Program-made: the position numbers and the translations under genes | Assembly: GCA_949296775.1 (NCBI GenBank) | Contig: CASFQA010000003.1 | Coordinates: 47,935-111,934 of the forward strand | Origin: an uncultured bacterium | GTDB lineage: Bacteria > Bacillota_I > Bacilli_A > RFN20 > CAG-826 | Direction: 5' to 3' | DNA: 64,000 bases | Notes under the pieces: generated by a model | Database searches by the model: none | Seen by the model: the letters and a program-made list of their open reading frames with translations, nothing else | Told to the model about the DNA's origin: nothing | Shown: one piece after another, positions 23,233 through 39,268 of the stretch | Numbering within the stretch: position 1 is the stretch's first letter | Layout of the letters: every line of letters starts with the position of its first letter

Positions 23233-25218
23233 ATGAGGAAAAAATCTACGTTGCTAGCTCTCTCGGTATCGGCGTTGCTGCTTTTGGGAAGCTGCGATCC
23301 CGCGCGTACGTCAAGTAGCGAGGAAAGTCCGGTCGATACCACTTCGAAGACGACCCCCGTAACGGATACCACCTCGGATACCGATTCGGAAACCACGCCG
23401 ACCATTACCGTCGACATCACCACCACGGTCACCGAGGTCGAGACCGAGGGAACTTTGGAGTTGACCGCCACCGTAACCGGAGCGGAAGGCGCCAAAGCGA
23501 CTTGGGCCATCAAAACCAAAACTCCGGCGGAGATGGATGCCAGCATCGGCGCCGAAACCGGCGTTTTGAATGCCGGCACTGTAGCCGGAACTTTAGTCGT
23601 TACCGCAACTTATGGGGGCGTTAGCGATGAAATCACCATTACCGTTAAAGAAGCGCCGAAAGTAACGACGGTTAAGATTCTTGGCGCGCCGAGCGAAACC
23701 GTGTATACCGGGACTAACCTCAAGTTAGACGCCTATGTCACTAACGGGCCTGATGGTTATCGCGTTAACTGGACCTGCACGACCGATCCAGCGGATATGG
23801 GCGCGTCGGTCGATGCGAATGGCAACGTCTCAACCGGTACTAAGCCTGGTAAGATCACGGTTACCGCGAGAGTAGGCGAAGCGAGCGATTCGGTTGTCAT
23901 TACCGTAGTCGAGGCGCCGGTCGTCTCCGTCGATATCACGACCACCGACACGCAGGTGGCGATCGGCGGCACCCTTCAATTAGCCGCCTCCATCACCAAT
24001 GGAGAGGATGGGGCCAAACCGACCTGGGCCATCACTAGCAAAGCCCCGGAGACGATGGATGCGACCATCGACCCAGCTACTGGATTGTTAACTGCTGGCA
24101 AAGTTCCGGGCAAGTTGACCGTCACCGCCGCTTACGAAGATGCGGTCGACTCTATTGAGATCACTATTCCGGACCCGGCTTTCGCTACCGATGTTTTCCC
24201 AGCCTCGTATAAGATGACGATCGGCGATTCCTATTTCGAACTCGTTCAAGGAAAAGGCATAATTCTGTCGGGCGCATCCAACGTATATGGTTATATTTTG
24301 GTCGATGAGGTGCTCTACACTGCTGCATACGACGAAAAGCAAGGTTACGTCTATCGTCTTGATCAACCTCTATCGCCCGGTGTTATGACGGTTGATGAGG
24401 CTTTTGCAACCTTCGACCTAAATGCCGATGCTGCGAAATACACCTATGCCTCAACCGATGCGGCAACTGGTAATCACACTTATATCATCGACATAGACGG
24501 CACTCGCGCCCAAGATCTCATTAAGATTTTTGGGATATTTCCGGAGACCGCTAAGGCCGTCGTTAATCCTGATGGTGATCTCGTCTCCTTTACCTTCGTC
24601 GAGGAGGGCAAGGATATAGCCGCCACTATCACCGCGGTCGATGATTTGAGTGAGGAATACAAAGCCTATGTTGGAATCACTATCACTGGCGCCCCGAGTA
24701 AAGCCCCGACTAACGACGAGATCCCACTCGATTTGAATCTGGTCGGCGTCGATGAAGCGGATATTACTTGGTCGATCGTCAAGAACCCAACCACTATGGA
24801 TGCCACCATCGATCAGGACGGCATTCTCCATACCGGGTCGGTTGCCGGGACGGTTACCGTTCGGGCGGCGGCTGGCGATTATTATCATGAGGTCACCATC
24901 GAAATCCAGGTTGTCACTGTCGATATCGGCGGCGTTCCGACCGAACCGGTTTTGACCGGGCAAACGGTCGAGCTAGTTGCTAATATCACCAATACCGACG
25001 AGACGCCGGTCTGGTCGATAACAATGGTGGCCAAAGAGGATGGCAAGACGATGGATGCCACCCTCGATCAAGATGGCATCCTCCATACTGGCACCGTTGG
25101 CGGGACCATTACCGTCACCCTCAGCGTCGCTGGTTACTCTGACGAGGTCGATATCGTAGTTAAGCAACAGCTTAGCGATGGTGGAGCGACCGACGAAGGC
25201 GTGACCGAAGATTGGTAA
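23233..25218 (+). CDS. Surface lipoprotein with about six tandem Big_2 (bacterial Ig-like) domains
   Basis: LLLLGSC lipobox and a Thr/Asp-rich stalk. Repeated units of the form TWAIKTKTPAEMDASI...GTLVVTATYGGVSDEITITV. Confidence 0.75.
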   Translation: MRKKSTLLALSVSALLLLGSCDPARTSSSEESPVDTTSKTTPVTDTTSDTDSETTPTITVDITTTVTEVETEGTLELTATVTGAEGAKATWAIKTKTPAEMDASIGAETGVLNAGTVAGTLVVTATYGGVSDEITITVKEAPKVTTVKILGAPSETVYTGTNLKLDAYVTNGPDGYRVNWTCTTDPADMGASVDANGNVSTGTKPGKITVTARVGEASDSVVITVVEAPVVSVDITTTDTQVAIGGTLQLAASITNGEDGAKPTWAITSKAPETMDATIDPATGLLTAGKVPGKLTVTAAYEDAVDSIEITIPDPAFATDVFPASYKMTIGDSYFELVQGKGIILSGASNVYGYILVDEVLYTAAYDEKQGYVYRLDQPLSPGVMTVDEAFATFDLNADAAKYTYASTDAATGNHTYIIDIDGTRAQDLIKIFGIFPETAKAVVNPDGDLVSFTFVEEGKDIAATITAVDDLSEEYKAYVGITITGAPSKAPTNDEIPLDLNLVGVDEADITWSIVKNPTTMDATIDQDGILHTGSVAGTVTVRAAAGDYYHEVTIEIQVVTVDIGGVPTEPVLTGQTVELVANITNTDETPVWSITMVAKEDGKTMDATLDQDGILHTGTVGGTITVTLSVAGYSDEVDIVVKQQLSDGGATDEGVTEDW

Positions 25219-25229
25219 GGAGAGCAAAT

Positions 25230-37020: not shown

Positions 37021-37186
37021 CCTTTCTTTTTTGGCTATTTGCTGATGAATTAGCCTGTCTTTCATTCGCGTAGGTGAATGAACGCCCATATACCATACGG
37101 GCCAAATTTAAAAATGCAAGGATAAGTTGCTTTTTATTAATAAAAAGAGCCGAGAAACGATCTCGGCTCAATCGGTTTAACCCTTA

Positions 37187-39268
37187 TTAGTCGGTAAAGG
37201 CGTCGTTATCGGCTGGGGTTTTGATGAAGTGGAGGGTGATCTCCTCGTCGGTTTGGCTTTCGACGTGGAAGGTCCAGTCGAAGCGGTTGCCATCGTTCCA
37301 GAGGAGGTCGTTGGGGTAGAAGGAACGGGAGTAGTAGTTGGAGTAGGTGTCGTTCCCGTAATAGCTTTCCTTCTTGGTGCCGGTGTCGTTCTTCGCCTTG
37401 AAGTCCTCATCCCCGAAGAGGTTGGTCATGAGGCCGAAGGAGTTGTAGTAAGAGGTGCCGGCCGTGGTGTTGGTGGTGGTGGCGAAGACGGCTTGGAGTT
37501 CCCGGAAGGGGGTGTTCTCGCCGGTCGCGCCATCGGTCGAGCGGGACGGGGTGTTGTCGTGGACCCGGCGGGCTTCCGATTCGTAAGTCCCGGCGGCGGT
37601 GTCGGTCTTCTCCGTCGGAAGCGGGGTATCGGTGTAGTTGGTGACCCGGGTCGATTCATCGATGGACCCGTCGTCCGCTAGTTTGGCTTTTTCCGAAGAG
37701 ACGCGGGTATCGACGTGGAAGACCTGCAAGCCCGGATACTCATAGGTCCCACCATGGCCATAGGCGGCCGAGCCGGAGGCGCTGGTGGCGTTGCTCCATT
37801 CCGGATAGCCGGTCGAGTCTTTTTCGTTCAAGCCGGTCGGAGTGTAGTATTGGAGCATCAAATACTCGTCGTAAGGAGTCTCGTTCCAAGGATCGGCGGT
37901 CGGCTTGACAAGGAGGAAGTCACCGGTTTCGGTGAAGGACTTGAGCGTGATGGTGAAGTTGTCGCTCGAGCCATCGACGACCCGGGGGGCGACCCAGTTA
38001 TAGATCATCTTGGTATAGGCGTTGTGGTCGCCGACGTTATTGTCCATCATGTCGACTTGGCCAGCCGGACCCTCGGTCCGGTCGTAGGAGTAGTAGTCGG
38101 GGGCGCCCATCATGTGGCCGGTTTCGTGGATGATGGTATGGGCGTCGACCGCTTTGCCTTCCCAAACCTGCCCTTGGGCCGGGATGTTGTTCTCCGGATC
38201 GCCTTGGGCCTCTTTGACGTAATAGTTGTTGGTGACGTAGTCATAACGGGTCCAGAAGATCCGGTGGACTTTTGGGGAGGCGACGTTGGGGCTTGCCCCG
38301 GTATTGGTGGTGAAGTTCCACCAAAGCCCGCTCGATCCGGCGTCGGCGGTTCCGCTCATGCCGGGGGTGCTGTTCTGGGTGGTGTAGACGACTTCGACGC
38401 CATCGATATAGCCGTCGCCGTCAAGATCGTAATCCGTGGGGTCGATCCGGCCGGTCGAAACCAACCAGTCAACGGCCTCTTGGGCGATCTGGGTCGAGAA
38501 TCCGGTATTGGTGCTCGATTGCTCCTTATCGTTATAAGGGGCGGTGTAGATATCGGTGACTACGCCGGTGATGTTCAGCTTGCCATAGCTCGACTTCTCG
38601 TAATAGGAATGCAGCGATTCCCACGGGGTGCCGTCGGATTCGGCGAAGAAGGCTTCCTCAAGCATCGGCTTGACCTCATCGCGGATCTCGTCGCTGAATT
38701 TCTGACCATATTCGAATTCGACCGGGATGACGAGGATCTTGACGTCGCCGTTCGCCGGCATTCCGCCTCCGCCCAAGGTTTCGATTTCATCGAAATTTTG
38801 GATTTGGTATTCGGATAAATCCTCTACTTTATAGCTTTTATAGCCTTTGCCTTCGGCGGCAACGGTCGGGGTTTCGGCGACGACGTTGAATTTAACGGTC
38901 CCGTAGGTGTAGCCGCTTTGGGAATAACGGACCTCGCAGGTGTATTGGCCGGCCGGAAGGGAATCCGAAGCCGAATATTCCTCACCTGAGGTATCGTTGG
39001 TGATGGTATAGGTGGTCCGGGCGGAATAGTTGTAGACCTCCCGAGTGGTGCCGTCGGTCAAATCCTCGAAGACGACGCTGGGCAAGCAGCCGTCGAAAAA
39101 GGTCGAGCCTTCGGGAATCGAGGAAGCGGCCAAGGTGATGTTCAGACGACGATCGCCTAGCTCTTCGCTGCTGCTACTGCTGGTGCCATCCCTATTGCAG
39201 GCGGCCAGTCCGACGATGCTTAGCCCCAATAAGGCCCAGCATGTCAATTTAGTTTTACTCATTTTCAT
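37187..39268 (-). CDS. Lipoprotein zinc metalloprotease, M6 (immune inhibitor A/InhA)-like
   Basis: LSIVGLAAC lipobox. HETGHMMGAPDYY matches the M6 HEXXH...G(L/A)PD(E/Y)Y signature. GAGAGG RBS 7 nt before the ATG at 39268. Confidence 0.7.
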   Translation of the reverse strand: MKMSKTKLTCWALLGLSIVGLAACNRDGTSSSSSEELGDRRLNITLAASSIPEGSTFFDGCLPSVVFEDLTDGTTREVYNYSARTTYTITNDTSGEEYSASDSLPAGQYTCEVRYSQSGYTYGTVKFNVVAETPTVAAEGKGYKSYKVEDLSEYQIQNFDEIETLGGGGMPANGDVKILVIPVEFEYGQKFSDEIRDEVKPMLEEAFFAESDGTPWESLHSYYEKSSYGKLNITGVVTDIYTAPYNDKEQSSTNTGFSTQIAQEAVDWLVSTGRIDPTDYDLDGDGYIDGVEVVYTTQNSTPGMSGTADAGSSGLWWNFTTNTGASPNVASPKVHRIFWTRYDYVTNNYYVKEAQGDPENNIPAQGQVWEGKAVDAHTIIHETGHMMGAPDYYSYDRTEGPAGQVDMMDNNVGDHNAYTKMIYNWVAPRVVDGSSDNFTITLKSFTETGDFLLVKPTADPWNETPYDEYLMLQYYTPTGLNEKDSTGYPEWSNATSASGSAAYGHGGTYEYPGLQVFHVDTRVSSEKAKLADDGSIDESTRVTNYTDTPLPTEKTDTAAGTYESEARRVHDNTPSRSTDGATGENTPFRELQAVFATTTNTTAGTSYYNSFGLMTNLFGDEDFKAKNDTGTKKESYYGNDTYSNYYSRSFYPNDLLWNDGNRFDWTFHVESQTDEEITLHFIKTPADNDAFTD

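Follow-up and report, generated by a model that had tools for sequence, protein, structure and literature searches.

In Lactococcus lactis, the cell-envelope protease PrtP acts ahead of the oligopeptide importer Opp, which is in turn followed by intracellular peptidases. Bacteria of the order RFN20 are widespread in the guts of humans and livestock and have, to our knowledge, never been cultured. We here analyzed a stretch of 64,000 nucleotides from one such uncultured bacterium (GenBank assembly GCA_949296775.1, contig CASFQA010000003.1, positions 47,935 to 111,934; hereafter the window), focusing on a block of seven consecutive genes, g1 to g7, at 23233-39268, located between udk and an opp operon. 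We propose that this udk-opp region is the main surface-protein locus of a gut bacterium with a small genome, belonging to the Bacilli of order RFN20, and we read it as a locus for surface proteolysis and peptide uptake with an attached variable adhesin cassette, giving that reading a probability of roughly 55%. A published metabolic model of RFN20 comprises oligopeptide import followed by intracellular peptidases, with the word 'protease' never being used (PMC7301438). The genes on which our reading depends are as follows (window positions, with strand in brackets).

37187-39268 (-): g7, a 693-aa M6-like zinc-metalloprotease lipoprotein, lipobox at Cys24
39473-39919 (+): a small membrane protein with a DUF3899 domain (Pfam, 28.5 bits)
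40023-49417 (+): oppA, oppB, oppC, oppD and oppF (Pfam SBP_bac_5, BPD_transp_1, OppC_N, ABC_tran and oligo_HPY)
21121-22395 (+): an M18 aminopeptidase without signal peptide (Pfam Peptidase_M18, 247 bits)

The strongest and most repeatable signal was the linkage of the protease gene to opp. Scanning the GTDB species representatives gave 391 loci encoding g7 relatives, and open reading frames (ORFs) were called in the best 80 of these, which come from metagenome-assembled genomes (MAGs) of uneven quality and to which all synteny counts given here refer. Sixty-four loci, having at least 3.5 kb of DNA upstream of g7, were informative with regards to this linkage. The order found in the window, in which oppA and the DUF3899 gene run divergently from g7 (oppA<-DUF3899<- ->g7), was seen in 43 of the 64, including every informative locus whose g7 homologue scored above about 420 bits; the DUF3899 gene lay between g7 and oppA in all 43 and possibly opens the opp unit. 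In 10 further loci the protease gene also had opp genes as neighbours, though in a different arrangement, bringing total linkage to 53/64. Six loci (L055, L059, L062, L064, L065 and L067) had oppBCDF followed by two co-directional tandem M6-like genes, and on contig CALBHT010000086.1 (L032 and L067) three M6-like genes flanked the opp operon, with all of these opp-flanking genes of distant relatives retaining both a lipobox and the motif HExGHxxGxxDYY. The linkage persisted through two gene orders while other neighbours were reshuffled, and g7 diverged at a rate similar to that of OppA (87 vs 88%, 63 vs 67% and 56 vs 58% identity). A literature search for a link between M6 proteases and Opp found nothing specific.

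The protease itself carries the zinc motif HETGHMMGAPDYY at 38090-38128 (-), which conforms to the HExxHxxGxxD pattern of the M6 family, within an M6-type domain at 37826-38662 that matched the NCBIfam M6 domain TIGR03296 over 260 of 286 positions (E 6.8e-27, 95.1 bits). More than 1300 homologues were found, mostly in MAGs named 'Bacilli bacterium', some of them annotated by JGI as 'M6 family metalloprotease-like' and some carrying the Pfam M6 domain PF05547. When 16 members were aligned, reaching down to 35% identity, we observed that the lipobox Cys24 as well as H381, E382, H385, G388, D391, Y392 and Y393 were invariant, and distant paralogues likewise retained the lipobox, a Ser-rich stalk and HExGHxxGxxDYY. 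The most economical reading of this conservation is that g7 would be an active, lipid-anchored zinc peptidase.

It is the linkage to opp, together with the intact active site, the lipid anchor, the syntenic M18 aminopeptidase and the published view of RFN20 as dependent on oligopeptide import (PMC7301438), that underlies our reading of the locus in terms of surface proteolysis and peptide uptake. According to the mechanism that we propose, g7 would act as a membrane-tethered M6-like zinc endopeptidase cutting proteins or peptides from the surroundings at the surface of the cell, whereupon the OppA lipoprotein would capture the oligopeptides, OppBCDF would import them, and peptidases of the cytosol, the neighbouring M18 aminopeptidase being a candidate, would free the amino acids. 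A predicted surface protease, a complete Opp importer and a cytosolic peptidase are all present and genetically associated in the window, with oppA located at 40023-42698 (+) and the order of genes for an LtaS-like protein, the M18 aminopeptidase and udk being kept in three related loci (L087-L089). The Big_2-containing g6 would be an accessory lipoprotein, probably binding or presenting substrate; g3, g4 and g5 would be further accessory lipoproteins, with g3 having a LolA/LprG-type fold; and g1-g2 would form an exchangeable adhesin-like cassette of immunoglobulin (Ig)-like, leucine-rich repeat (LRR) and PPC-like modules. For g6 and g3-g5 the most likely role would be the binding of substrate or ligand, in the case of g3 a hydrophobic ligand.

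OppA of the window was unusually long, at 891 aa. Its SBP_bac_5 match covered only residues 349-691, thus leaving large extra regions at both the N- and the C-terminus. The LtaS-like protein is a sulfatase-family membrane protein encoded at 19137-21077 (+), in a lineage predicted to be without standard teichoic-acid synthesis.

The remaining six genes of the block are the following.

23233-25218 (+): g1, a lipoprotein with Cys21, a 44-aa stalk and Big_2-like Ig repeats
25230-29159 (+): g2, 1309 aa, with an N-terminal signal or signal-anchor, LRR_5, Flg_new and PPC-like repeats
29308-30765 (+): g3, a lipoprotein with Cys24, of a small family of about 450 aa
30780-31574 (+): g4, a 264-aa lipoprotein with Cys19 and a 43-aa stalk
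31607-34252 (+): g5, an 881-aa lipoprotein with Cys18 and a 54-aa stalk
34828-37011 (-): g6, a 727-aa lipoprotein with Cys24 and Big_2

An earlier note on this DNA, made without database searches, had described the seven ORFs of the block, five on the plus strand and two on the minus strand, as lipobox lipoproteins with Ser/Thr/Asp-rich stalks. All seven ORFs are there, and their lengths were reproduced by independent gene calls on identical public contigs. We searched the ORFs of 100 aa or more from all six frames of the window with the G+LPP and PROSITE PS51257-type patterns, using as criteria for a lipoprotein a K/R-containing n-region, an uncharged h-region and a lipobox of the type [LVI][ASTVI][GAS]C with its Cys at about residues 15-35. 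The patterns matched g1, g3, g4, g5, g6, g7, OppA (40023) and a lipoprotein at 9906-10511, with only two spurious matches among all the ORFs scanned, and a lipobox-type N-terminus was visible in nearly all orthologues. By pattern, six of the seven genes are thereby predicted to encode lipoproteins, whereas g2 is not: its Cys13 follows a hydrophobic run of seven residues and is itself followed by 15 further uncharged residues. The N-terminus of g2, MKKNK-LLILSASCALGLSLVGAGVGIAL-SEKANAD, holds an uncharged segment of 23 residues, is retained in a 71%-identical orthologue (L087), there without the ANA site, and looks rather like a Sec signal or signal-anchor. Since g2 homologues in other species (L024, L027 and L030) bear a true lipobox, the type of anchor evidently varies within this family. 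Finding six lipoproteins in seven consecutive genes greatly exceeds what chance would give, with a binomial probability of 1e-7 at a lipoprotein frequency of 5%, or of 2e-4 at the 18% seen in this window.

The stalks were also found as described, being linkers rich in S/T/D/G/N/E/P/Q that follow Cys+1 over 44 (g1), 18 (g3), 43 (g4), 54 (g5), 11 (g6) and 17 (g7) residues. The earlier note had rightly pointed to the same architecture in OppA (39 residues) and in the lipoprotein at 9906 (at least 42 residues), which means that the combination of lipobox and stalk extends beyond the block. Among the subset of window ORFs that were examined, none matched Lgt or LspA.

This design can be related to the lineage. 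The closest named loci with g7 relatives belonged to Candidatus Alloenteromonas and Candidatus Enteromonas, while others came from uncultured Bacilli, Mollicutes or Firmicutes of human, chicken, pig, ruminant and horse guts, one of the records being a complete chromosome of 1.06 Mb. Enteromonas corresponds to the GTDB genus UBA733 of order RFN20, family CAG-826 (PMC8035907), and that family is predicted to be peptidoglycan-deficient, with srtA/B being absent from the whole order (PMC10868615). The organism of the window is thus probably wall-less. If both wall-less and sortase-less, a lipid anchor or a signal-anchor helix would be its only general way of holding surface proteins, and lineage-wide lipid anchoring would account for OppA and the unrelated 9906 lipoprotein, at a distance of 13 kb, sharing the design. 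In one analysis, the absence of sortases was taken to indicate that surface proteins are expressed at a reduced level (PMC10868615). Judging from this locus, the lineage may show a rich set of surface proteins by means of lipid anchors.

Several points weigh against our reading. The placement of the organism in CAG-826, and with it the wall-less state, is taken from the nearest named relatives. With regards to the protease, its TIGR03296 score of 95.1 bits lies below the curated cut-off of 110.8, Pfam Peptidase_M6 (PF05547) was not reported for g7 at E<=10, and a profile of 16 sequences of the g7 family matched no chain among the PDB sequences, and hence no solved M6 structure, at E<=0.1. That profile came closest to two small zinc proteases, 1C7K and 4HX3 (E 0.21, motif region only), and a single-sequence PDB search with g7 gave nothing useful. 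The label of an M6/InhA-like zinc protease given in the earlier note is therefore carried by the zinc motif and the TIGR03296 match as far as 'M6-like' goes, but the relationship to immune inhibitor A (InhA) appears remote. Characterised M6 proteases, such as InhA and PrtV, act on proteins of hosts or competitors, and, with a lower probability, g7 may have a defensive or virulence role. Moreover, 11 of the 64 informative loci had no opp genes within 10 kb, these being paralogues that scored 298-341 bits and were about 33-36% identical to g7, and conserved adjacency of divergent genes can in part be synteny inherited within one lineage. The activity and substrates of the protease, the passage of its products to Opp and the functions of g3-g6 are deduced from sequence, and with g4, g5 and most of g6 having no recognised domain, the 'accessory' role is a guess.

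The alternative that fares best, although we still consider it unlikely, is that of the earlier note, in which the whole block would be a variable host-interaction arsenal of adhesins together with an InhA-type protease destroying host antimicrobial peptides or defence proteins. The organism comes from animal guts according to the record titles, and modules typical of adhesins are found in g1, g2 and g6, with g1-g2 built of Big_2-like arrays, a BspA-type LRR, a Listeria-Bacteroides repeat as in InlB, and PPC-like repeats. The details differed somewhat from those first described. Instead of the six Big_2 repeats proposed for g1 we found five, of about 87 residues each and arranged 3+2 at residues 56-316 (23398-24180) and 473-645 (24649-25167), split by an unrelated insert of 156 aa (24181-24648). 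Big_2 was not called on these repeats by Pfam, but a profile of all five aligned with the Big_2 domain that Pfam confirms in g6 (hhalign 96.5%, E 8e-10), and the g1 orthologue in L087 has a weak precomputed Big_2 match; a single-sequence PDB search with g1 yielded nothing useful. The Ig-domain protein of the note is g6, having Big_2 (PF02368) at 36718-36912 with 40.9 bits against a threshold of 22.8.

For g2, the BspA-LRR part of the original description held, as LRR_5 (PF13306) was found at 26028-26237 (43.2 bits, threshold 27.7), followed by Flg_new (PF09479, the Listeria-Bacteroides repeat) at 26424-26633 (34.7 bits, threshold 27), and its relatives in the PDB by sequence were the BspA-like LRR proteins 4FS7 and 4GT6 and the internalin B B-repeat. 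The proposed five or more PPC domains are less certain. The C-terminal 830 residues comprise six to seven divergent repeats of about 105-140 aa (residues 472-1303, 26643-29138), and Pfam PPC (PF04151) was detected neither on g2 nor on any of the seven repeats taken singly. A profile of 25 related repeats matched PDB entry 2LUW at E 1.7e-4, over residues 10-99 of its 101-residue chain. That entry shows the PPC domain of vEP, a protease from Vibrio (PMC8799719). Three of the 25 repeats touched PF04151 (best E 0.015), which was the Pfam family most often touched. These matches weakly support a PPC-like identity of the repeats.

A further point in favour of the arsenal is that g1-g2 were seen to be replaced between close relatives. 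The slot between udk and g3 is occupied in two loci, L088 and L089, by another cassette, even though L088 is from a sister species with udk 89% and g7 87% identical to those of the window. The replacement (L088:1807-9847, L089:2321-9853) contains an opposite-strand paralogue of g5 at 30% identity and two mutually paralogous proteins of 690-975 aa, one with g1-like Big_2 repeats, and most of its proteins bear lipoboxes. Divergent g2 alleles also occur within the species. One scaffold (L003, ENA ERZ16268172 scaffold_3184), sharing 99.5% identity with the window from 29177 on, has a g2 3' end, corresponding to the last repeat, that is 32% identical to the window and 67% identical to L007, and the breakpoint of homology with both L003 and L007 is the g2 terminator at window position 29177. 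The first part of that scaffold (L003:1-2640) was chimeric: its Bacteroidota-like DNA carries miaA and a SusC-type N-terminus (CarbopepD_reg_2/Plug), with the reading frame running on into the last PPC-like repeat of the divergent g2 allele. We rejected L003 as proof of g1-g2 being absent because of that Bacteroidota-like DNA, though its g2 3' end is genuinely different. We likewise rejected a uniformly faster divergence of g1-g2, as their identity to the L087 orthologues (73% for g1 and 71% for g2) is near that of the cytosolic M18 peptidase (74%); the variation is one of replacement.

Judged from these sequence comparisons, g1-g2 form a variable, exchangeable cassette of adhesin-like type, and it is there only that the block behaves as a variable island. 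For g3-g7 the order g3-g4-g5 / g6-g7 / DUF3899-opp was instead conserved across genera (L004, L005, L007-L010, L013, L016, L033 and L087-L089, all of which keep g3-g4-g5), so that the variable block of the earlier note shrinks to its first two genes. That conserved order speaks against the arsenal, as do the slow divergence of g7 and its tie to opp, and the similarity to InhA is too remote to be seen when the family profile is compared with PDB sequences. The suggested analogy with InhA in degrading host antimicrobial peptides found no specific support, with opp linkage being the strongest signal of context. Distant members in L078, L083 and L086 have no gut source in their names, a weak point as habitat was read from names only. 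Still fitting surface-antigen diversification is the drop of g3-g5 to 58-63% identity in L008, where the flanking genes are 76-88% identical.

Somewhat more doubtful is the second alternative, namely that g3-g4-g5, perhaps with g6, would serve a wall-less auxotroph in scavenging and transferring lipids or other hydrophobic ligands, a task separate from that of the protease in which g3 would be an LprG/LppX-like carrier. These three genes form a conserved but, as it appears from the orthologues compared, fast-diverging triad: two sister species that are equidistant in opp, g7 and g6 differ in g3-g5, at 78-84% and 58-63% identity, respectively, and the identity of g3-g6 falls faster than that of g7 or OppA. 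The triad is a terminator-bounded unit of its own, and relatives of g3, g4 and g5 stay close to g7, although rearranged, in other genomes (L032, L041, L045, L048 and L060), both of which agree with a separate function. In proteins that have been characterised, the LolA/LprG-type fold serves to bind hydrophobic ligands, including lipids, and a crystal structure of LprG contains a glycolipid ligand (3MHA, 'bound to PIM').

Using word-indexed search, even with an alignment as query, only seven g3 homologues were found, while exhaustive search among 1.84 billion proteins gave a family of 134 representatives at 50% clustering, nearly all of 420-500 aa, with the lipobox Cys24 kept by at least 90% of the 95 members aligned. 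Pfam and NCBIfam gave no match for g3, LppX_LprAFG and LolA included, which counts against a carrier of that kind. The AlphaFold2 model (pLDDT 91.7, pTM 0.86) predicts two beta-rich halves, a part of which resembles LolA/LprG/LppX as an open beta-barrel closed by helices. The resemblance amounts to 7-11% identity over about 142 of 485 residues with a Foldseek TM of about 0.4 per target, and no full-length match to g3 was found in the PDB by Foldseek (TMq at most 0.22). In the predicted model the likeness to carriers of lipids or hydrophobic ligands is thus one of fold and not of family membership, and LolA-like folds can bind proteins too, RseB and MucB being examples.

The other members of the triad, and g6, give fewer clues. 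In g4, which always adjoins g5, Pfam and NCBIfam recognised no domain. A divergent InlB B-repeat is found N-terminally in g5 (31844-32020), with 10 of 13 orthologues matching Flg_new_2 (best E 1.4e-8). Among the g6 orthologues, 11 of 18 match Big_2 and a second Ig-like domain occurs, whereas the C-terminal 500 aa or so have no recognised domain; g6 lies directly downstream of g7 in 20 of 70 loci informative in that respect, these being the closer relatives. Equally doubtful would be an extension of our own reading, in which g3-g6 and the M6-like protease would make up a dedicated surface machine to capture, cut and hand over, with g3 passing hydrophobic cargo, either lipids or hydrophobic peptides, to transporters. 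If that were true, g3 would scavenge nutrients in a manner analogous to the proteins with which mycoplasmas take up lipids, though by means of another fold.

We find it very improbable that g7 instead matures an exported signalling peptide, or pheromone, for re-import by Opp as in RNPP-type quorum sensing of Bacillus and Enterococcus. An extracellular protease does adjoin Opp, which in Firmicutes is a known import route for signalling peptides, but among the annotated neighbours in the window, L001-L006 and L087-L089 there was no recognisable regulator or gene for a small pro-peptide, and the multiple tandem protease paralogues of several genomes fit bulk proteolysis better. Least probable of all is a phase- or antigen-variable lipoprotein locus of the mycoplasma Vsp/Vlp/Vsa type, in which switching within a cell line would come from inversion of DNA, slipped-strand events at repeats or recombination between cassettes, for although a lipoprotein gene cluster in a relative of Mollicutes and strain-level allelic differences in g2 might suggest this, the locus has no recombinase gene and lacks long inverted repeats, its promoters and 5' gene ends are free of tandem repeats and homopolymer tracts, such repeated DNA as stands out is confined to the in-frame Ig repeats of g1 and the shared ribosome-binding site (RBS)/MKK start contexts, and the seven proteins are not mutual paralogues.

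This last point was seen with blastp as well as profile-profile comparison, in which alignments among the seven proteins were limited to signal peptides and stalks, except for a weak C-terminal motif common to g3 and g6 (66% probability). A domain common to g3, g5 and g6 was considered and could on this basis not be established.

Returning to the proteolysis and uptake locus as a whole, the following signals of transcription were found around its genes.

29177-29197 (+): terminator-like hairpin with T-run, 3' of g2, closing the g1-g2 unit
34268-34297 (+): terminator-like hairpin, 3' of g5, closing the g3-g4-g5 unit
34787-34808 (-): terminator-like hairpin, 3' of g6
37147-37169 (-): terminator-like hairpin, 3' of g7
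39297-39324 (-): sigma-70-like promoter 5' of g7, TTGACT-16-TATTAT (10/12), a consensus match only

From the hairpins after g2, g5, g6 and g7, the block is made up of four transcription units, g1-g2, g3-g4-g5, g6 and g7. Calls of terminators and promoters are consensus matches whose totals did not exceed the shuffled expectation, and the four terminators cited are the best placed and strongest. The putative g7 promoter is located in the divergent spacer that g7 has in common with the DUF3899-opp unit, and an RBS-like (Shine-Dalgarno-like) sequence precedes the start of all seven genes. The locus has a G+C content of about 52%, with neither G+C content nor skew giving a signature of foreign DNA or a compositional anomaly, and an Rfam scan of the window found tRNAs only, none of them within g1-g7. 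The convergent spacer between g5 and g6 (34253-34827, 575 bp) was not conserved even in an 82%-identical relative (L007), and in its position L005 has a DUF1846 gene and a gene for a 337-aa protein, while L087 has a 71-aa ORF; the spacer is a possible insertion hot spot.

Elsewhere in the window, genes for a member of the choloylglycine (bile-salt) hydrolase family at 13355-14434 (+) and a GH3 glycosidase at 1895-4291 (+) are consistent with a gut lifestyle. A protein with Schlafen AlbA_2/HATPase_c_4 domains is encoded at 8230-9666 (+), and Pfam gave no match for the ORFs at 51802-53691 (+, 629 aa), 49410-50078 (+, 222 aa) and 24-815 (+, 263 aa).

If our reading is correct, an opp-linked zinc protease would be a testable first step in the nitrogen nutrition of RFN20, for which published genome-based models are silent on the source of peptides (PMC7301438), and the link between protease and opp would offer a lead for cultivation media. 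The g1-g2 slot marks a site of strain-level surface variation, relevant to strain tracking and to interactions with host and phage, and g3 represents a small lipoprotein family without database match that now has a confident structural model.

Comparing the locus with known systems, several likenesses are partial. With the M6 family, as in InhA of Bacillus thuringiensis and Bacillus anthracis and PrtV of Vibrio cholerae, g7 shares HExxHxxGxxDxY and a catalytic match of about 280 residues, but differs in being a lipoprotein with N- and C-terminal domains of its own and in having a genomic context of nutrient uptake rather than toxin or virulence genes. With BspA-type LRR and internalin-like proteins, g2 shares LRR_5 and the Listeria-Bacteroides repeat (Flg_new), while its anchoring would be by an N-terminal hydrophobic segment and not by LPXTG, GW or the type IX secretion system, and it adds six to seven divergent C-terminal repeats of a PPC-like beta-sandwich type. 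Compared with the mycobacterial LppX/LprG/LprF and with LolA/LolB/RseB, g3 is twice as long, is modelled with two beta-rich halves and has 7-11% identity. The surface-lipoprotein clusters of mycoplasmas have in common with this locus the clustering of lipoprotein genes and an unusually long OppA lipoprotein, mycoplasma OppA proteins having large extra terminal regions as well, and the likely wall-less state would here too make lipoproteins the dominant surface proteins; they differ in that this locus is without switching machinery or repeat-driven variation, has non-paralogous genes and a G+C content of about 52%. There is also an analogy with the PrtP-Opp system of lactic acid bacteria, the logic of which appears to be the same, with the window holding three corresponding tiers in g7, oppABCDF and the M18 aminopeptidase. 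In place of the subtilisin-like, wall-anchored serine protease PrtP, however, the protease here would be an M6-type zinc metalloprotease held by a lipid anchor, its gene is chromosomally linked to opp in at least 43 species, and its hosts are probably wall-less gut bacteria with small genomes.

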